A DNA stretch of 64,000 nucleotides from an uncultured bacterium. GTDB lineage: Bacteria > SAR324 > NAC60-12. The DNA is taken from positions 1 through 64,000 of the forward strand of contig CAXGMD010000003.1 in assembly GCA_964010765.1 (NCBI GenBank). Direction: 5' to 3'. Made by a program: the position numbers and the translations under genes. Positions 4,494 to 47,206 of this stretch are shown piece by piece (the first letter of the stretch is position 1; every line of letters starts with the position of its first letter). The notes beneath the pieces are model-generated. The model had not been told where the DNA came from. It ran no database searches and saw only the letters and a program-made list of their open reading frames with translations.

Positions 4494-4748
4494 CTTTTGG
4501 ATCCAAATTGGCTTTTTCTTCTCCCTCTCTAGTAAACGATGACTCGCCTAGAAAAATCAGATTGTTTTCATATTCTGGCAGAACAGCGAATCCTTCCATA
4601 CCCATCACCGAAAAATATTAAACTAAGGTCTTGCAGCTAAGCCAAAAAAATGTTTTTCAGTGTGGCAGTCCTTTAGAACTAAATTGAATCTTCCTCAAAC
4701 GGTGTGGTTTTGATTTCACTTCCGTACTTAATCGATAACTGGAGTATC

Positions 4749-5516
4749 ATGCGATCCTATCCGATCTCACTGCGACTAGGTATTAGCACTCTCGTGCTGG
4801 GAACCTTATTCTTATTACTTTCTCCACTGAACTCTTTTGCGATCTTCCCGATCTCTACTGAACCAAAAGAACAGCCCATCGCCTTCAGCCACAAACTACA
4901 TGTTGGCCAGAATGGCATTGCTTGCCAATACTGCCATCTTTATGCTCGGCGATCACATTCTTCCGGAATACCACCTGTAAGTACCTGCGTTGGTTGTCAT
5001 GGTCCTCATGGACAAGAGTTGGTACAAGCTGAGCACCCAGAAGTAGACAAAATGCGTGATCTCTGGGCAAAAGGAGAATCCATTCCCTGGGTAAAGCTTC
5101 ATGACATCCCAGACTTTGTCCGCTTTCCTCACAAACAACACATCAATGCAGATGCTGCCCGCTTCATAGATGGTGCGGGCAACGGCTGTGACCTGAATGC
5201 AGATCCTCGCTCCTTATCCTGTAGGGTGATGCTATTTCGAAATGGAGGGGACCAGCGCTGTCAGTCCTGTCATGGAAGTGTGCAGGAGATGGAAGTTGCC
5301 CATGTGGTAGATCAGAATTTTGGTGGGATGGGGTGGTGCATGCAGTGCCACTTACAAGTGGAAGGGGCCATTGAGCGTAAGCGCGCTATGAGCACAATGG
5401 CAGGATGGAACAATGCCAAAGATAACGATGCCCGAAGAGAAGCTCAAGCATACCTAGTCAATGAGCGAAACCACCATAACCCCAACATGCTCGACTGCTA
5501 CACATGCCACTATTGA
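4749..5516 (+). CDS. actA: Alternative complex III pentaheme cytochrome c subunit ActA
   Basis: QPIAFSHKLH and five CxxCH motifs (CQYCH, CVGCH, CQSCH, CMQCH, CYTCH); GGAG at 4741-4744 favours ATG 4749 over the track start 4704. Confidence 0.92.
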   Translation: MRSYPISLRLGISTLVLGTLFLLLSPLNSFAIFPISTEPKEQPIAFSHKLHVGQNGIACQYCHLYARRSHSSGIPPVSTCVGCHGPHGQELVQAEHPEVDKMRDLWAKGESIPWVKLHDIPDFVRFPHKQHINADAARFIDGAGNGCDLNADPRSLSCRVMLFRNGGDQRCQSCHGSVQEMEVAHVVDQNFGGMGWCMQCHLQVEGAIERKRAMSTMAGWNNAKDNDARREAQAYLVNERNHHNPNMLDCYTCHY

Positions 5517-41830: not shown

Positions 41831-42052
41831 TTAACTTTGATCAACCGCATCATGCTTCTGCTGCAGCTTCCGTACCCAGTAGAATCCACCAATCAGCATT
41901 ACTACTGGCAGTACCGTCAAGAAAGCTGTCGTCAGGTAAAATGCGGCTCTTGTATTCTCTGAGGAAGAGAAGCAAACCGCACAGGCGTGTACATCGAAAT
42001 GCAGGAATAAACTAGCTAAGCCAGTAATCGCAATAGCAGGAACAGCTTTCAC
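41831..42052 (-). CDS. Small membrane protein with a CAVC motif, last gene of the oxidase operon
   Basis: GTG at 42052 with GAGG SD; signal-like N-terminus, ACAVCF, C-terminal TM. Confidence 0.7.
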   Translation of the reverse strand: MKAVPAIAITGLASLFLHFDVHACAVCFSSSENTRAAFYLTTAFLTVLPVVMLIGGFYWVRKLQQKHDAVDQS

Positions 42053-42057
42053 AATCC

Positions 42058-42657
42058 TCAAAGCAAGTAGACAAGTGTATATAAAACTGGCCAAACTCCA
42101 ACCACAAAATACCAGAAGATTTGGGCTGCACGGAGGTTGTCAATTGTCAGTTGCTGGGAAGTGGAGTTGAGCCTCCTCAAACAAGCAAGCAAAGCGAGTA
42201 GTCCCCCAATCACATGAAGCCCGTGAGCTCCGATGATCAGATAGAAGACACCTCCATAGGTACTGGAAGTGATGGTCAACCCAAAACTGATCAACTGGAC
42301 CCACTCGTATCCCTGCACACTGACAAAGACCGTCCCCAGAGCAATCGTAAGAGCAAGCAACTGCTTGGACTGTGAGGCCTGAGAAGAGAACACCTTTACA
42401 GACCGATGCAGACAGAAGGCACTCGCCAAGAGAGTCAAGGAATTTAGTGCTGTTGCAAACACAGGAAGCCGAGGCTGCCCCCATGGAGGCCACTCTTCCG
42501 CACCAGAGCGGATGATCATGTAGGCACTGATTAATGCTGCAAAGAACATCACCTCTGTCATGATCAGAATGACAGTCGCAAAAATGCTGCTTGAAACTAG
42601 TTGTCTACGTTCAGCATTCGAATTTGCTGGAATCTCAGGAGCTACGAGTAAAATCAC
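42058..42657 (-). CDS. Heme-copper oxidase subunit III (second copy)
   Basis: TEVMFFAALISAY, QGYEW, FYLIIGAHGLHV, FWYFV..VW. Confidence 0.88.
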   Translation of the reverse strand: MILLVAPEIPANSNAERRQLVSSSIFATVILIMTEVMFFAALISAYMIIRSGAEEWPPWGQPRLPVFATALNSLTLLASAFCLHRSVKVFSSQASQSKQLLALTIALGTVFVSVQGYEWVQLISFGLTITSSTYGGVFYLIIGAHGLHVIGGLLALLACLRRLNSTSQQLTIDNLRAAQIFWYFVVGVWPVLYTLVYLL

Positions 42658-42660
42658 GAA

Positions 42661-43011
42661 TCACCGAAGTTGACCATCGACATACCTTTGTTGCTCCGCA
42701 CAGGTATTGTTAGAGATACAGTCTTGCCAGTTTTGGCCATCAGCCTTCATCACGTCACCGGCAACACCAAAAAAGAATACTCCGAGCAAAACAGTAGAAA
42801 TTAGCAGTAAGAACCAGACGTATTTTTTCTCAAAATTGAGATGCATGAAGTAAGCGGCGACGTAATAGGTCTTTACGAGCGCAATTCCGAAAGCAGTCAA
42901 TAGCGTGAGCCACGGAATTCCTAGCTCTGGTCCAATGATACTGACCACCAAGAGTACTAAGAGAAGTACCCAAATCTTTACATAATTTGGATGTGCGTGT
43001 GCTCCAGCCAT
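42661..43011 (-). CDS. Heme-copper oxidase subunit IV (CtaF/CyoD-like)
   Basis: YVKIW, ALVK...VAAYFMHL; start at ATG 43011. Confidence 0.88.
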   Translation of the reverse strand: MAGAHAHPNYVKIWVLLLVLLVVSIIGPELGIPWLTLLTAFGIALVKTYYVAAYFMHLNFEKKYVWFLLLISTVLLGVFFFGVAGDVMKADGQNWQDCISNNTCAEQQRYVDGQLR

Positions 43012-43013
43012 AT

Positions 43014-43607
43014 TCACTTTGCGATGTAGAGGAGTGGGAAAAGGAAAATCCAGACGATATCGACAAAATGCCAATACAGCCCGATCAATTCAACCCTGTG
43101 TGGGTTGAAGCCTTTCCTGAGATCAAAGGAGATCAAAGCCATAATGACCATACCTCCGATCACATGCAGGGCATGTAGTCCTGTTGCCGTATAGTAAAAA
43201 GACCAATAAGTATTGGTCAAAGGCGTCTTCAGCAGCTCTGGATCATCAGTGAAAAGTTTTGAGGAATATTCATAATATTTGACCAGCAAGAAGACGAGGC
43301 CTCCACCAATTGTGTACCAGATAAATTTAAATGCCCGGTCAAAATCCTTCTTCTCTGCAGCGTCGTGTGCCAATACGATGAAAAGGCTGGAAGTCAGCAG
43401 GACGAATGTATTAAACGCACCTGCTGGAACTTTCGTAAAAACAGCTTCTCCGCCCCACCAAGGATTATTTAGTCGGTAAAGAATGTAGCAAGCAATCAAT
43501 CCACCAAAAATGAAAATCTCTGAGGCTAGTAGCCACCATACCGCGAGTCGTCCGGTTGGGATTCCAGTTGCTGAACGGCTGGTTGCCAAAGGTCCTTGCA
43601 TAGACAT
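43014..43607 (-). CDS. ctaE: Heme-copper oxidase subunit III
   Basis: LASEIFIFGGL, NTFVLLTSS, K..EY, FYYTATGLHALHV, GLYWHFVDIVW. Confidence 0.92.
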   Translation of the reverse strand: MSMQGPLATSRSATGIPTGRLAVWWLLASEIFIFGGLIACYILYRLNNPWWGGEAVFTKVPAGAFNTFVLLTSSLFIVLAHDAAEKKDFDRAFKFIWYTIGGGLVFLLVKYYEYSSKLFTDDPELLKTPLTNTYWSFYYTATGLHALHVIGGMVIMALISFDLRKGFNPHRVELIGLYWHFVDIVWIFLFPLLYIAK

Positions 43608-43662: not shown

Positions 43663-45378
43663 TCAGTTGCGATCGGGCATATTTTGAGGCCAGTAGTCTT
43701 CCTTATTACCAGGGACACTGTATTCATAGGGCCCACGATACACAGTAGGAAGTTCTGCAAAGTTGCCGTGGGGAGGAGGCGATGGAACTGTCCATTCTAG
43801 TGTATTAGATTTCCAAGGATTCGCTGGAGCCTTCTCTCCTTTGAACATGCTTACGAAAAAATTGTATGCGAAGACGAATTGAAATAACAGCATGGTCACC
43901 ATGGAAACCGTTGCAAAGACACGGATTCCTTGTAGATCAGCTGTAGCCAAGTCTGGAAAGTGCTGAAAATTATAAATTCGTCGATGCTGTCCAGCCATTC
44001 CAACTAGGAAGAGAGGTAAGAATATACCATTGAAAGGAATGATTGTACCCCAGAAGTGGATCTTACCCAGCGTTTCATCCATCATTCTTCCAAACATTTT
44101 TGGATACCAGTAGTACAAGCCTGCGAACATCCCAATGATCGCAATGGGGAAAAAGGTATAGTGGAAGTGTGCGATTACGAAATAACTGTCATGAAAATAG
44201 ATATCCAAGGCACTAGAACCAAGGTAGATTCCTGTGACACCACCAAGCAGAAAGGTAATTAAGAAACCCAGTGCCCACAGCATCGGGGTTCGGAATTCAA
44301 TTGACCCTCCGTAAAGCGTAGCTATGTAACTGAATAAAATTTCGGCGATAGGAATTGAAATCAGCAGGGTTGTAACGAGGAAGATGTTTGCCATGCGAGG
44401 GTCAATTCCAGCAATAAACTGGTGGTGGGCCCAAACAACAAATGCCAGTCCACCTGTTGCGAAGGTAGTGTAGAGAATTGTCTTGTAGCCAAAGAGTTTC
44501 TTGCGAGCAAAGGTTGTCATGATCTCAGCGACGATACCTAGGGCTGGAAGCAAGACCACATATACCTCTGGGTGACCAAAAAACCAGAATAAGTGCTGCC
44601 AAAGTATTGGATCACCACCCCCAGAAGGCACAAAGAAGGTGGTACCAATTCGCTGGTCCATCAGAAGCATGATCGATCCAGCTATCAATGGACCAACTGA
44701 AGCCATGAACATGATCGAAGCCAATACAATCATCCAGACTACCATGGGAATGTCGGTCATCCGCATTCCTGGCGCACGAGCGTTCATCGAAGTAGTTACA
44801 AAATTAATCCCTCCGATCAGGAACGCCACAAACTCAAGGGCGACAGCAATCAACCAAAGTGAGGCTCCCCAATCCGTCAGGTTGTATTCGGCGACTGCTG
44901 ATAAGGGGGGATAAGAAGTCCAGGCTCCGCCAAATCCTCCACCTTGTACGAAGAAGGACATGAACAGGACCACTACACTGAGTAGAAAGATTTGGAAGGA
45001 TAAACGATTCAGTCTTGGAAAGACCATATCGTCGCAGCCGATCATCAGTGGGATCAGGATGTTTCCGAAAGCGGCGATGAGTACAGGCATCGCTACCCAG
45101 AAAATCATGATTGAACCATGGTTGGTGATCAGCATGTTGTATTCTCCCGGTCCGACCGTGCCATAGAGCGGGACTTCCATGCCTGGGAAGGCTAACTGCA
45201 TACGGAAGGCATAAGCGAAATACCCTCCGACAATTGCCATGAACATTCCCGTAAACATGTACTGCAACCCAATGATCTTGTGATCAGTAGAGAAGAAGTA
45301 CTTCATCATGAAGCTTTGTTCGTGATGGTCATGTCCGTGAGCGGCATGACTATCATGGGTGACCGTCGTCTGTCCCAT
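43663..45378 (-). CDS. ctaD: Heme-copper oxidase subunit I, A1-type motif, atypical proton channels
   Basis: TDHK, TNHG, DMVFPRLN, WFFGHPEVY, WAHH, HDSYFVIAHFHY, HRR. Confidence 0.96.
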   Translation of the reverse strand: MGQTTVTHDSHAAHGHDHHEQSFMMKYFFSTDHKIIGLQYMFTGMFMAIVGGYFAYAFRMQLAFPGMEVPLYGTVGPGEYNMLITNHGSIMIFWVAMPVLIAAFGNILIPLMIGCDDMVFPRLNRLSFQIFLLSVVVLFMSFFVQGGGFGGAWTSYPPLSAVAEYNLTDWGASLWLIAVALEFVAFLIGGINFVTTSMNARAPGMRMTDIPMVVWMIVLASIMFMASVGPLIAGSIMLLMDQRIGTTFFVPSGGGDPILWQHLFWFFGHPEVYVVLLPALGIVAEIMTTFARKKLFGYKTILYTTFATGGLAFVVWAHHQFIAGIDPRMANIFLVTTLLISIPIAEILFSYIATLYGGSIEFRTPMLWALGFLITFLLGGVTGIYLGSSALDIYFHDSYFVIAHFHYTFFPIAIIGMFAGLYYWYPKMFGRMMDETLGKIHFWGTIIPFNGIFLPLFLVGMAGQHRRIYNFQHFPDLATADLQGIRVFATVSMVTMLLFQFVFAYNFFVSMFKGEKAPANPWKSNTLEWTVPSPPPHGNFAELPTVYRGPYEYSVPGNKEDYWPQNMPDRN

Positions 45379-45403: not shown

Positions 45404-46171
45404 TTAGAAGCTGCTGAGCAGCTTATCTGTGAAGGATTCGCTATTCGATGCCGTGCTGACTGTCATCTTCTGAAGTCGTTTTTGATAATCACTTTCGTAA
45501 GTTCGGTTGCGGATCGATTCCATAGCAGCATCATAGGACTGCTGGTCCTCATGAACTACGATTGTTGCACCCATAATTCCGTGACCATATCCACAAATTT
45601 CTGCGCATTGGATATCATATATGCCTGTCTTATTGGGCTCAAACCAGCCCGTGATTGTACGGCCAGGAATCGTGTCCTGCCGCAATCGGAAGGCCGGAAC
45701 AGAGAAATTATGCAGCACATCACGAGATTCTAGTTCGAAGTGATAGACTGTGTCTTTCTTCACATGCAGATCATTGACGGTAGATATATCATCTTCGGTA
45801 TCCAGCTTACCATCAGGGCCTGAGTGGATAAAGAACCAACTCCACTGCTGCCCCACTACTCGAATCTTATCCTCTGCCTGAGGCAAGGTTTGCTTCACAT
45901 CCACCCAAACCATTACCGTAAAAACGATAATAACTACGTCAAGTGCGATCACGGAGTAGTGTGGATAGTGCGTCCATTTCTTCTGAGAATGTGGATCACC
46001 TGAGATGTAAGCGGCTCGCACACCTTCTTTTCGTCGGAAACGAACCATGAAATAGGTCATCACTGCCAATACCATCACGAACCAAAAGCCCACAATGACC
46101 GTGATCATATCGAACAGGAAATCTATGTCGCCAGCATACGTTGAAGCACCAGGCACAAAATATTCAATCAT
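45404..46171 (-). CDS. ctaC: Cytochrome c oxidase subunit II (CuA), no fused cytochrome c
   Basis: Two TM helices, GQQWSW, DVLHNF, CAEICGYGHGIM. Confidence 0.94.
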   Translation of the reverse strand: MIEYFVPGASTYAGDIDFLFDMITVIVGFWFVMVLAVMTYFMVRFRRKEGVRAAYISGDPHSQKKWTHYPHYSVIALDVVIIVFTVMVWVDVKQTLPQAEDKIRVVGQQWSWFFIHSGPDGKLDTEDDISTVNDLHVKKDTVYHFELESRDVLHNFSVPAFRLRQDTIPGRTITGWFEPNKTGIYDIQCAEICGYGHGIMGATIVVHEDQQSYDAAMESIRNRTYESDYQKRLQKMTVSTASNSESFTDKLLSSF

Positions 46172-46303: not shown

Positions 46304-47206
46304 TCATAGAAATATTCGATCCAATGTCAACACCACACACCAGGCAGGCAAATAAATGATTGATGCGAAAAACACCTTTCTCGCATTCTGCTCATTGCGG
46401 TGCAGCCAGAATTGAAGAGTTGGCATCAAGAAACCGACTCCCAAGAGTGTAGCAACAACAAGAAAGAAAGGTCCTGCCTGTTCAAACCAGAATACGGAAG
46501 CACTGGCTAGAATCAGTAGGGCGGTATGCAGTACCATGTGTACTGCAGTCAAGCGCCCATCTTCATCAACACTAGAGAGCATCCGGAATCCACCTTTACG
46601 GTATTCGTCCTGATACATCCAAGCGATGGCGAAAAAATGTGGCATCTGCCACAGGTAAAGTACTGCAAAAATTGGGAGTGCTCCCCACTCTAAAGCTCCG
46701 GTTGCTGCGCTCCAGCCCATCAGTGGAGGCAGAGCTCCGGTTATGGCACCAACCCAAGTGTTGGCAACCGTTTTTTGCTTCAATGGAGTGTAGAGCAAAA
46801 GGTATGTCAGGTGCGTCGCAGCACCCAAAAATGCCGTAAGCCAGCCGGTGAATGCGAAAAGATAGCTAAAACCAACGATGCTTAGCGTAGCTCCTAATAG
46901 GATGGCTTCTTCTTCGCTGACTCGCCCCGTTGGGATCGGACGCTGACAAGTCCTGCGCATGCGGCCGTCCTGCTCACGCTCAAACCACTGATTGAGTACA
47001 TGCGCACCGCCACCAATCAGAAGTGTACCAAGAATCAAGTGAAAGATTTTAGTGGGATCGCTGGTAACTCCGGGCAGGTAGTATCCCATCATCGCACTCA
47101 ATACCACCATGCCCAATAAACGTGGCTTGCAGAGGGTCCAGTAGTCACCCAGGCGACTACGCCACTGATCAATGGGGGAGAGGAAGGTGATTGACTTAGT
47201 TCTCAT
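46304..47206 (-). CDS. ctaB: Protoheme IX farnesyltransferase (heme O synthase)
   Basis: LCKPR, NQWFEREQDGRMRRT..RP, YTPLK, GALPPLMGW, WQMPHFFAI, EYRKGG. Confidence 0.95.
   Translation of the reverse strand: MRTKSITFLSPIDQWRSRLGDYWTLCKPRLLGMVVLSAMMGYYLPGVTSDPTKIFHLILGTLLIGGGAHVLNQWFEREQDGRMRRTCQRPIPTGRVSEEEAILLGATLSIVGFSYLFAFTGWLTAFLGAATHLTYLLLYTPLKQKTVANTWVGAITGALPPLMGWSAATGALEWGALPIFAVLYLWQMPHFFAIAWMYQDEYRKGGFRMLSSVDEDGRLTAVHMVLHTALLILASASVFWFEQAGPFFLVVATLLGVGFLMPTLQFWLHRNEQNARKVFFASIIYLPAWCVVLTLDRIFL

Follow-up and report, generated by a model that had tools for sequence, protein, structure and literature searches.

We found that the only terminal oxidase detected in the genome of an uncultured marine SAR324 bacterium has lost the K-channel lysine of A-family cytochrome c oxidases and carries new, conserved buried acidic and His residues in two of its subunits. 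Its operon lies on the minus strand of the window, the whole 64,000-nucleotide stretch of DNA that was analysed (Table 1). We propose that a route of acid, His and Ser residues replaces the Lys channel and that the D-channel is kept but rebuilt near Glu286, with pumping perhaps lowered; we put the probability of this reading, whose geometry we infer from sequence, at about 45%. A bolder version, which we hold more tentatively, is that the main respiratory oxidase in marine SAR324, as well as in many Myxococcota and Gemmatimonadota, would use a third kind of A-family proton input, with an inter-subunit Glu346-His71(II)-Asp78(II) relay standing in for the Lys channel and a two-carboxylate gate (Glu182/Glu286) atop the D-channel. 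If true, these enzymes would have another pumping stoichiometry or, at the extreme, Na+ coupling, and would combine, in a viable natural form, the equivalents of two changes either of which disables the textbook enzyme when made in the laboratory.

Table 1. Features of the oxidase operon, with positions in the window. (II) marks residues of subunit II.
Feature	Position	Strand	Evidence
Subunit I (571 aa) with A1 motif GHPEVY and a dismantled K-channel	43663..45378	(-)	ORF without internal stops
Glu182 in helix IV, at R. sphaeroides S197 (bovine 153); upper D-channel, close to Glu286	44833..44835	(-)	codon GAG
Ala185-Phe186 in place of D-channel Ser200-Ser201	44821..44826	(-)	Phe186 in 121/121
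Ala284 in place of K-channel Ser299	44527..44529	(-)	Ala in 120/121; Ser in 78/78 Lys-bearing neighbours
Thr304 and Thr308, helix VII polar stripe gained in core clade	44455..44469	(-)	Thr in 66/70 and 64/70
Gln320, next residue after the CuB His pair (Met elsewhere)	44419..44421	(-)	120/121
Ser341 (at R. sphaeroides A356), a helix turn away from the lost Thr	44356..44358	(-)	121/121
Ile344-Ala345-Glu346-Ile347: Ile in place of Thr359 and Lys362, Glu in place of Ile361	44338..44349	(-)	alignment
cyoE/ctaB heme O synthase, upstream, co-directional	46304..47206	(-)	TIGR01473 above cut-off
Subunit II, CuA, no heme c domain; TM2 with clade-specific His71 and Asp78	45404..46171	(-)	PF00116, TIGR02866
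Gln63(II), where R. sphaeroides has the K-channel entry Glu (E101)	45983..45985	(-)	alignment
His71(II) (Pro-His in TM2), co-occurs with subunit I Glu346	45959..45961	(-)	167 pairs
Asp78(II), mid-TM2	45938..45940	(-)	acid in 89/90 Lys-less and 0/77 Lys-bearing pairs
Subunit III, first paralogue	43014..43607	(-)	PF00510
Subunit IV (caa3_sub_IV / COX4_pro)	42661..43011	(-)	TIGR02229, PF03626 above cut-off
Subunit III, second paralogue (a-III-type doublet)	42058..42657	(-)	PF00510
Conserved small membrane ORF at the end of the cluster, possible accessory subunit	41831..42052	(-)	weak homology

Subunit I aligns to its Rhodobacter sphaeroides counterpart (1m56) with an E value of 4e-130 and with no gap across helix IV or from helix VI to helix IX. 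In helix IV, Glu182 pairs with S197, Ala185/Phe186 with S200/S201 and Asn192 with N207; in helices VI to VIII, Ala284 pairs with S299, Glu285 with H300, Gln320 with M335 and Ser341 with A356; and around the Lys, Ile344 pairs with T359, Glu346 (codon GAA, 44341-44343) with I361, Ile347 with K362 and Ser350 with S365. The predicted monomer (AlphaFold pLDDT 87.4) matches 1m56 with a TM-score of 0.85. Because the aligned blocks are gapless and helix VIII is continuous in the model, a Lys or Thr hidden by misalignment is ruled out. The alignment upheld what the initial annotation had read in the gene: the helix VIII Thr and Lys are both Ile, a Glu sits one residue before the Lys position, the S255 position is Ala, and helix IV has lost its Ser-Ser pair and gained a Glu. 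The catalytic core it had listed was recovered as well, namely six His ligands (H87, H269, H318, H319, H404 and H406), the cross-link Tyr273, Glu271, the His396/Asp397 and Arg466/467 pairs, and the D-channel residues Asp117 and Asn106/124/192; Tyr40 and Ser127 are present too.

The six His and the cross-linked Tyr place the protein among the heme-copper O2 reductases. GHPEVY/Glu286, the D-channel residues D132/N121/N139/N207/Y33 (numbered as in Table 2 of PMC12901375) and a CuA-containing subunit II place it in the A1 family. It departs from the canonical two-channel A1 enzyme at K362, T359, S299 and subunit II E101, which are Ile, Ile, Ala and Gln. Nor is it a C-family (cbb3) enzyme, as its Tyr lies in helix VI, position 312 is Ala/Ser and subunit II carries CuA. 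At the C-family channel positions, Glu285, Thr304 and Thr308 are present, Ser312 of the clade is Ala in the query and the Lys is absent. NCBI names many clade members as C family (cbb3), and databases file clade proteins as ordinary A-family or mislabel them 'cbb3-type'.

How well are the substitutions conserved? Glu182, Glu346 and Ser341 are kept in 121/121 sequences (the query and its best 120 matches, 73-98% identity), a check that the initial annotation had proposed for the new Glu residues. No Lys is among the residues listed at position 347 in this set, and the whole D-channel entry is strictly conserved in it. A second search, seeded with a Gemmatimonadota member, returned Glu346 in 120/120, Lys in 0/120 and Glu182 in 119/120, with one sequence not parsed. 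Both Glu codons occur at site 182 and at site 346. Sequence error is ruled out by the homologues of both searches (121/121 and 120/120), which lack the Lys and carry Glu346. The Lys position is Met in 52 of 70 core members. Among the named matches we found no cultured isolate with the full motif; the one non-MAG record title among them, Puniceicoccaceae K14 (L006), belongs to a sequence without Glu346.

Other positions in subunit I have changed too. Ser or Thr occupies position 341 in 53 of 69 Lys-less versus 1 of 131 Lys-bearing A-family sequences, and positions 304 and 308 have Ala/Ile in Lys-bearing neighbours. The clade enzyme additionally carries S201F, F109W and W144Q. Judged by its distribution, the Glu of GIVAE (Glu285) is no novelty of the clade, an acid being found there also in 42 of 78 Lys-bearing relatives and in E. 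coli CyoB.

Subunit II keeps its CuA ligands (H154, C189, E191, C193, H197 and M200) invariant in 19/19 sequences. The gain of a mid-membrane Asp and a His in subunit II, in a clade whose subunit I is Lys-less, is a new observation; read from the sequence, Asp78(II) is nearer the periplasm than His71(II) within TM2. Glu346 and His71(II) agree in 163 of 167 pairs (67 with both, 96 with neither, 4 discordant). Phylogenetically independent tests of all covariations gave no significant result: there is one independent Glu346/His71(II) pair (p 1), and three of four Lys losses come with acid78(II) (p 0.25). Asp78(II) as a general compensation for Lys loss is unsupported, since a mid-TM2 acid was seen by eye in 0 of 7 interpretable Lys-less plasmid loci (nine were fetched, one Lys-bearing and one without an identifiable subunit II). 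By unconditional count, the subunit II entry Glu is retained in 24/30 own-phylum and 7/40 other core members, which rules out its uniform loss; the position is relaxed, not lost.

The small ORF that closes the cluster has weak matches (E 7e-10 to 4e-4) at 19 of the 38 non-self loci listed, all of them Lys-less, and falls with Atlas clusters of unnamed 75-81 aa proteins (scores 0.91-0.95); it matched no Pfam or NCBIfam family. The operon is covered by RNA-library contigs, a presence that is no proof of transcription. A promoter scan performed at chance level (10 found, 8.2 expected), and a phage search returned nothing but distant canonical genes.

The Lys-less clade is well supported and includes SAR324, Myxococcota, Gemmatimonadota and others. 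With trait columns removed, it sits inside the a-III/CoxMNOP-like radiation (support 100/99), within which this tree does not settle the branching order. A sister relationship to the SIPSV Lys-less group, at 0.936 with all columns, lost its resolution without the trait columns. Lys, Glu346 and His71 are all missing from sister branches (15-17 loci), and Glu346 is missing from three Verrucomicrobia-like members; therefore, Glu346 is not what permits Lys loss. Because of these sister branches, and because it points about 100 degrees away on the helix, Glu346 is no in-place substitute for Lys either.

The genome, which is 92% complete, has one COX1-family gene and a heme A synthase, and cytochrome bd was not found in it. 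The gene is present at ≥71% identity in 38 of 44 other family genomes. In 18 of the 39 carriers (this genome and 17 family relatives) it is the sole COX1-family match, and bd was found in 0/18 of these. As the sole heme-copper oxidase in genomes without detected bd, the enzyme very probably reduces O2, and because it is the only terminal oxidase found in many genomes, a dead or spare copy is unlikely. We are highly confident in its identity as a functional aa3-type (CuA) cytochrome c oxidase, reducing O2 to water, and as the one terminal oxidase that this genome was found to encode.

In characterised enzymes, K319M (bovine numbering) blocks heme a3 reduction (PMC12901375); therefore, a working sole oxidase needs some substitute. 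In our preferred reading, the D-channel would be the main proton input because its entry, Asn gate and Glu286 are intact, and its upper part would be rebuilt, with Glu182 placing another carboxylate close to Glu286 and with the loss of the Ser pair. One or two reductive-phase protons, normally delivered via the Lys channel, would travel to the cross-linked Tyr along a polar path shifted from the usual one, through helix VI Glu285, helix VII Thr304/Thr308, helix VIII Ser341 and Glu346, and subunit II His71/Asp78. The polar gains cluster in helices VII and VIII and in subunit II TM2, the K-side of the enzyme. An acid paired with a His would hold the proton in place of the Lys, and the pumping stoichiometry might fall below 1 H+/e-. 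We infer the spatial contact between Glu346 and His71(II), like any proton route and any stoichiometry, from what was seen directly: the residues, their conservation, the cross-subunit co-occurrence, the operon, the tree position and the sole-oxidase status.

An alternative that we consider unlikely, though far from negligible, is that all eight protons use the D-channel, with Glu182 enabling active-site protonation in the reductive phase and Glu346-His71(II) acting as a structural or charge-compensating buried pair. An acid at 182 arises, in one change, on the branch where Lys is lost (86/90 Lys-less versus 0/77 Lys-bearing pairs), and it is present in sister branches without Glu346. Helix IV of a separate lineage without the Lys carries Glu at positions 183 and 192, and two further Lys-less sequences have an acid at 182. 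Moreover, decoupling D-channel mutations partly rescue the Lys mutant (PMC12901375). However, the helix IV acid is absent from 28 of 69 Lys-less sequences, its association with Lys loss has a median p of 1 in an independent-pair test, and the invariant Asp78(II) and Ser341 would be left unexplained.

Could the enzyme be partly uncoupled? Some chemical protons would then come from the periplasm via Asp78(II)/His71(II)/Glu346 or Glu182, with little or no pumping, and energy yield would be traded for turnover or O2 affinity. In R. sphaeroides, a Ser-to-Asp change at the Glu182 position abolished pumping and drew protons from the periplasmic side (Namslauer 2007, as cited in PMC7341133), which makes the altered pumping suggested in the initial annotation plausible; the periplasmic placement of Asp78(II) points the same way. 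We nevertheless judge substantial uncoupling improbable. The whole D-channel entry is strictly conserved, the sole oxidase of an oligotroph should be selected for energy conservation, and one mutant in a foreign background need not foretell the behaviour of a co-evolved enzyme in which S201F, F109W and W144Q are also present.

The other two suggestions of the initial annotation, Na+ coupling and NO chemistry, fared less well. A Na+-coupled or Na+/H+-promiscuous A-family oxidase, with a cation site at Glu182/Glu271 or Glu346/Asp78(II), would suit a marine host and several new buried carboxylates, and the host c-subunit retains the Gln, Glu, Ser and Tyr of the presumed Na+ motif (28/28 parsed of 31 loci). 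However, the Thr of that presumed motif is missing from these c-subunits (ESLxxY), and NqrA passed the cut-off in 3 of 45 family genomes, this one not among them. The clade also occurs in soil-derived Gemmatimonadota and Myxococcota bins, by their record titles, and the known Na+-pumping oxidase is of the C family. The genomic context weighs weakly against Na+ translocation, and we regard Na+ coupling as very unlikely. We give still less credence to an ordinary pump with structural substitutions and a water-filled K-side path that needs no Lys: Lys was lost at least 10 times among 200 A-family sequences and 14 of 69 Lys-less sequences gained an acid in neither helix IV nor VIII, but the buried charges are invariant in two subunits and several phyla, and Lys mutants of characterised enzymes are blocked (PMC12901375). 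NO reduction or other altered active-site chemistry, which the invariant Gln after the CuB His pair and a helix X remodelled beside heme a3 (Thr408, Pro411) might suggest, is scarcely credible given that all three CuB His are intact, that the cross-link Tyr273, whose loss defines NORs (PMC11214002), is kept in 121/121 (query and best 120 matches), and that the genome yielded no second O2 reductase.

Why does the clade matter? It is a long-standing question why A-family oxidases require a Lys channel of their own, and another how the D-channel is coupled to pumping; both have been approached almost only through point mutants. The clade, a widespread and apparently unstudied branch of the cytochrome c oxidases, points to particular residues of two subunits that could be mutated or transplanted. 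If pumping is reduced, estimates of aerobic energy yield for an abundant marine lineage would change.

The enzyme shares with the A1 aa3 oxidases of R. sphaeroides and P. denitrificans (1M56, 1AR1, 7ATE) its fold (TM-score 0.85-0.86, about 39% identity), the six His, cross-link Tyr, Glu286, D132/N121/N139/N207, Mg site, Arg pair and CuA subunit II. It differs from them in the replacement of K362, T359 and S299, in S197E, S200A and S201F, in Glu346, Ser341 and Gln320, in subunit II His71/Asp78, and in having two subunit III genes. Closer relatives are the a-III/CoxMNOP-like oxidases (42-44% identity to references comprising ctaD of Paraburkholderia and Skermanella plasmids; Ralstonia matches are annotated coxN). 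Subtype a-III is defined by a subunit III gene doublet (Degli Esposti 2019, PMC6431628), which the query operon has, together with subunit IV and a placement with CoxN-type proteins. However, a-III is tabulated as K-channel 'yes' (PMC8239418 Table_1), and the references retain PTAxK and the subunit II Glu, unlike the query, whose gene order III-IV-III also differs.

Loss of the K-channel by itself has been reported before from other lineages of the A-family. Whether this subfamily was among them had been left open in the initial annotation; Lys-less A-family enzymes are indeed tabulated, but we did not find this residue set in print. The A1 'KC channel' subclade of Elusimicrobia, bacterium HR19/Calescamantes and Methylacidiphilum likewise lacks Lys (Degli Esposti 2021, PMC8239418 Table_3, Table_1), and its HR19 row (S291F, K354T, T351F) matches the Calescibacterium locus L026, a distant sister in the Glu182 clade. 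No row combines Thr-to-Ile with Lys-to-Ile/Met, the query pattern; the table scores neither 182, 346, 341 nor the subunit II mid-helix positions and holds no biochemistry, and SAR324 and Myxococc* had zero matches in five supplements. The Lys-less A2 enzymes known from iron-oxidising acidophiles (Acidithiobacillus rus operon, Thioclava), originally interpreted as an adaptation to acid (bioRxiv 2020.03.01.968255), similarly have a hydrophobic residue for Lys, no subunit II Glu and an intact D-channel, but they keep the Thr and have extra N-terminal helices. The lineage with Glu183 and Glu192 is a separate branch, distinct from the query with its Glu182, Asn192 and Ile347. Finally, the R. sphaeroides S197D and K362M mutants resemble the clade in their helix IV acid at the same position and in Met or Ile at the Lys site. 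These mutants are uncoupled or blocked (PMC7341133, PMC12901375), whereas both changes are strictly conserved in the natural enzyme. The clade holds natural equivalents of K362M/I, T359I, S299A and S197E combined, and offers a natural test of proton uptake and pumping.

The subunit I gene of this SAR324 genome encodes an A-family heme-copper oxidase that has lost the K-channel lysine. The closest solved structure by sequence is R. sphaeroides aa3 oxidase (1m56), and the alignment is gapless over helix IV and helices VI-IX. In it, R. sphaeroides K362, T359 and S299 become Ile347, Ile344 and Ala284, as the initial annotation had claimed. Two acids are new: Glu182 replaces S197 and Glu346 replaces I361. 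Ala-Phe takes the place of the S200-S201 pair. The remaining features named by that annotation are indeed retained: every metal ligand, the cross-link Tyr273, Glu271, the Mg ligands, the Arg pair and D-channel residues D132, N121, N139 and N207. Y33 and S142 are kept as well. The best NCBIfam match, CtaD_CoxA, scores 577.7, under its cut-off of 670.75. An AlphaFold model (pLDDT 87.4, pTM 0.89), built from the clade alignment and confirming the fold only, has residues 182 and 346 within long helices and a TM-score of ~0.85 to A1 enzymes.

Features in the window and in related records
Feature	Location	Strand	Remarks
Subunit I	43663-45378	-	571 aa; PF00115, E 1e-129
Operon		-	Order cyoE, subunit II (CuA), subunit I, subunit III, subunit IV, second subunit III, small membrane ORF
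Small membrane ORF	41831-42052	-	Candidate extra subunit; beside Lys-less members only, among loci listed
Multiheme cytochrome c	4683-5513	+	Stop-to-stop ORF, 277 aa, five CxxCH motifs
ATP synthase c-subunit, host family	G000:C113:7277-7468		As in L198-L225, common intermediate ion-site motif; ion selectivity uncertain
COX1-family match, family genome	G071:C69:16-1389	-	8 in-frame TGA; suggests mitochondrial or code-4 contaminant contig
Altered subunit I, homologous locus	L033:5941-7695	+	CuB His to Gln, Mg-site Asp to Ser; also P0143, P0245

Among the query and its best 120 homologues of 8,000 scored, Glu182, Phe186, Ser341 and Glu346 are invariant (121/121 each) and Gln320 is found in 120/121. 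A search seeded with a Gemmatimonadota member returned Glu346 in 120/120, Glu182 in 119/120 and the Lys in 0/120. The two membrane glutamates proposed earlier (PIAE and LEF) are thus conserved, and homologues with the same changes in both searches rule out a sequence error. Both GAA and GAG encode each Glu across homologues, an identical protein is found on 102 contigs, and near homologues carry SAR324 names in source records. Judged by these sequences, the Lys-less variant is real, conserved and widespread. The core clade, to which Glu346 maps, also gained Thr304 and Thr308 in helix VII, F109W and W144Q in D-channel helices, and Thr408 and Pro411 in helix X, and lost a helix XI His. A helix IX Glu is present in 33 of 70 members; the query has Thr there.

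In what order did these changes arise? FastTree on 203 of 237 aligned sequences (excluding those under 88% coverage or without the helix VI His, and one frameshifted locus) gave a nested series. IQ-TREE on 44 rows chosen by hand, after the trait columns (among them those of helices IV, VII and VIII) had been dropped, supported the core clade and the wider clade with an acid at 182 at 100/100 each; the a-III/CoxN/Gemmatimonadota radiation received 100/99, its internal branch order not being settled. The core clade spans the host family, Myxococcota, Gemmatimonadota, Bdellovibrionota, Verrucomicrobiota and Eisenbacteria. Its sisters (Fibrobacterota, Oligoflexia, Calescibacterium; 52-61% identity) have the acid at 182 and Ser341, and lack both Lys and Glu346. 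Lys loss and the acid at 182 would therefore have preceded Glu346, since a tree with a single outgroup as its root puts the first two at the base of the wider clade and the third at the core. One core-clade operon (L015, 69% identity) sits in a MAG titled Klebsiella pneumoniae, probably a mislabelled bin. Two host-family genomes carry the gene in two copies (G060:C62 and G038:C25/C27), those of G060 ~4 kb apart and 80% and 72% identical to the query.

The signature extends to subunit II. Subunit I was matched in 192 loci and subunit II in 171, giving 167 pairs complete at the scored helices, query included. An acid in mid-TM2 (Asp78 of subunit II in the query) is present in 89 of 90 Lys-less pairs and 0 of 77 Lys-bearing pairs; the sole exception is L033, in which CuB His ligands are missing. 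Glu346 and His71 of subunit II occur together in 67 pairs and are both absent from 96, with His only in three and Glu only in one. On the tree, the acid/Lys pattern amounts to four changes (independent-pair p 0.25) and the Glu346/His71 pattern to two (p 1). The K-channel entry Glu (E101 in R. sphaeroides, Gln in the query) is at or adjoining its position in 77/77 Lys-bearing pairs. It holds that position in 24/30 core members from the host's phylum, in 7/40 of the remaining core members and in 3/16 sister members. Seven unrelated Lys-less enzymes, with subunit II read by eye, lack the mid-TM2 acid. Three Lys-less enzymes of the a-III radiation, from Acidobacteriota (L076, L081) and Thermodesulfobacteriota (L046), have Glu in mid-TM2, and at least one is an independent Lys loss. 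The II-I-III-IV-III gene order recurs in core and sister loci reaching far enough; two subunit III genes in the operon are the mark of subtype a-III (PMC6431628), and annotated CoxMNOP-like plasmid loci likewise pair such a doublet with subunit IV.

Of 237 A-family sequences, 200 with intact metal sites (individual loci, representatives of 50% clusters and three named references) record at least 10 losses of the Lys. A helix IV or VIII acid occurs in 55/69 Lys-less and 3/131 Lys-bearing sequences, and Ser/Thr at 341 (R. sphaeroides A356) in 53/69 and 1/131. Since independent-pair p is 0.125-0.25, these associations are suggestive only. Ser/Thr at 341 goes with a hydrophobic replacement of the Lys in 49 of 53 sequences from several lineages, versus 1 of 131 that bear the Lys; Ser/Thr341 is a candidate convergent substitute for Thr359, its independent pairs not being significant. 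A Lys-less branch with Glu at 183 and 192 appears to be a lineage different from the query's. The altered proteins of L033, P0143 and P0245, which still adjoin subunit II, are possibly non-O2-reducing or degenerate heme-copper proteins.

Does the host depend on this enzyme? A single COX1-family gene and a heme A synthase are present in its genome, which is 92% complete, and cytochrome bd was not found there. The gene is present at ≥71% identity in 38 of 44 other host-family genomes, with both Glu in all 29 of these 38 loci inspected. Eighteen of the 39 carriers have no further COX1-family match (seven of them ≥90% complete); bd-like matches occur in 3/45 family genomes and in none of these 18, although a gene missing from an incomplete genome need not be truly absent. 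Murali 2024 (PMC11214002) gives one plain 'A' enzyme for 11/11 SAR324 NAC60-12 genomes among those listed, eight of them without another HCO. Between 64 and 78% of the operon's words occur in each of 14 RNA-labelled runs, and four of these, mapped along the operon, cover 25-30 of its 30 bins, which indicates presence in RNA libraries, not level or strand of transcription.

In characterised oxidases, the K-channel runs from a subunit II Glu through Ser, Lys and Thr to Tyr (PMC8361435). During the reductive phase it delivers about two protons (PMC6934443), and changing the Lys to Met stops the reduction of heme a3 (PMC12901375). We therefore infer that a conserved sole oxidase must have a substitute. 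Our favoured reading, with a probability of about 0.45, is that an acid/His/Ser route, displaced but still on the K side, would replace the Lys channel, with the D-channel retuned alongside it. An ideal helical wheel puts Glu346 ~100 degrees away from the Lys position and hence outside the Lys site. It presumably faces TM2 of subunit II, given the packing in the bovine and Rhodobacter structures and its co-occurrence with His71. The 'rewired ion path' of the initial annotation is supported for the residue changes and the lost K-channel; the route itself is tentative.

Position 182 equals bovine 153, by offset from Table 2 of PMC12901375, and lies ~10 Å from bovine Glu242, in the D-channel (PMC7341133). 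Proton uptake through the D-channel only is possible though unlikely. Partial uncoupling, with protons from the periplasmic side, is less likely again; its support is that Ser-to-Asp at the 182 position abolished pumping in R. sphaeroides, protons then coming from that side (PMC7341133, citing Namslauer 2007). These two readings and the displaced route are not fully exclusive. The Na+ coupling raised initially is improbable: NqrA is above cut-off in 3/45 family genomes and was not found in this one (92% complete), and the c-subunit ion site (28 parsed of 31 loci) has Gln, Glu, Ser and Tyr with Leu for the Thr of the Na+ motif (Gln, Glu, Ser, Thr, Tyr). Purely structural changes seem slightly less probable still, and the altered O2/NO chemistry once suggested finds little room with Tyr273 and all metal ligands retained, NO chemistry being the least credible reading.

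Lys-less A-family enzymes have been described in Thioclava and in iron-oxidising acidophiles (bioRxiv 2020.03.01.968255). Several Lys-less subclades of A1, A2 and archaeal type have also been tabulated (PMC8239418), including an A1 member, bacterium HR19, that matches sister locus L026. K-channel loss as such is recurrent and partly catalogued already. The core pattern, the helix IV/VIII glutamates and the subunit II His/Asp are absent from the tables covered of PMC8239418; SAR324 and Myxococc* have no matches in its five supplements. The portions covered of two SAR324 genome papers (PMC4782131, PMC9031357) mention the oxidase without residue analysis. Full-text literature, with subscription journals mostly outside, yielded no description or assay of the clade, and an earlier description is possible. 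NCBI auto-names many clade proteins 'cbb3-type cytochrome c oxidase subunit I', though they are A-family; this naming might be part of the reason why SAR324 was published as possessing a 'high-affinity' oxidase only (PMC9031357). The weight of the finding lies in the enzyme's standing as sole oxidase, in a signature that spans two subunits and in the ease with which it can be put to a direct test. By its sequence, the enzyme would resemble an A1 aa3 oxidase of the a-III radiation in its working; compared with the canonical two-channel A1 oxidase, however, it lacks the K-channel.
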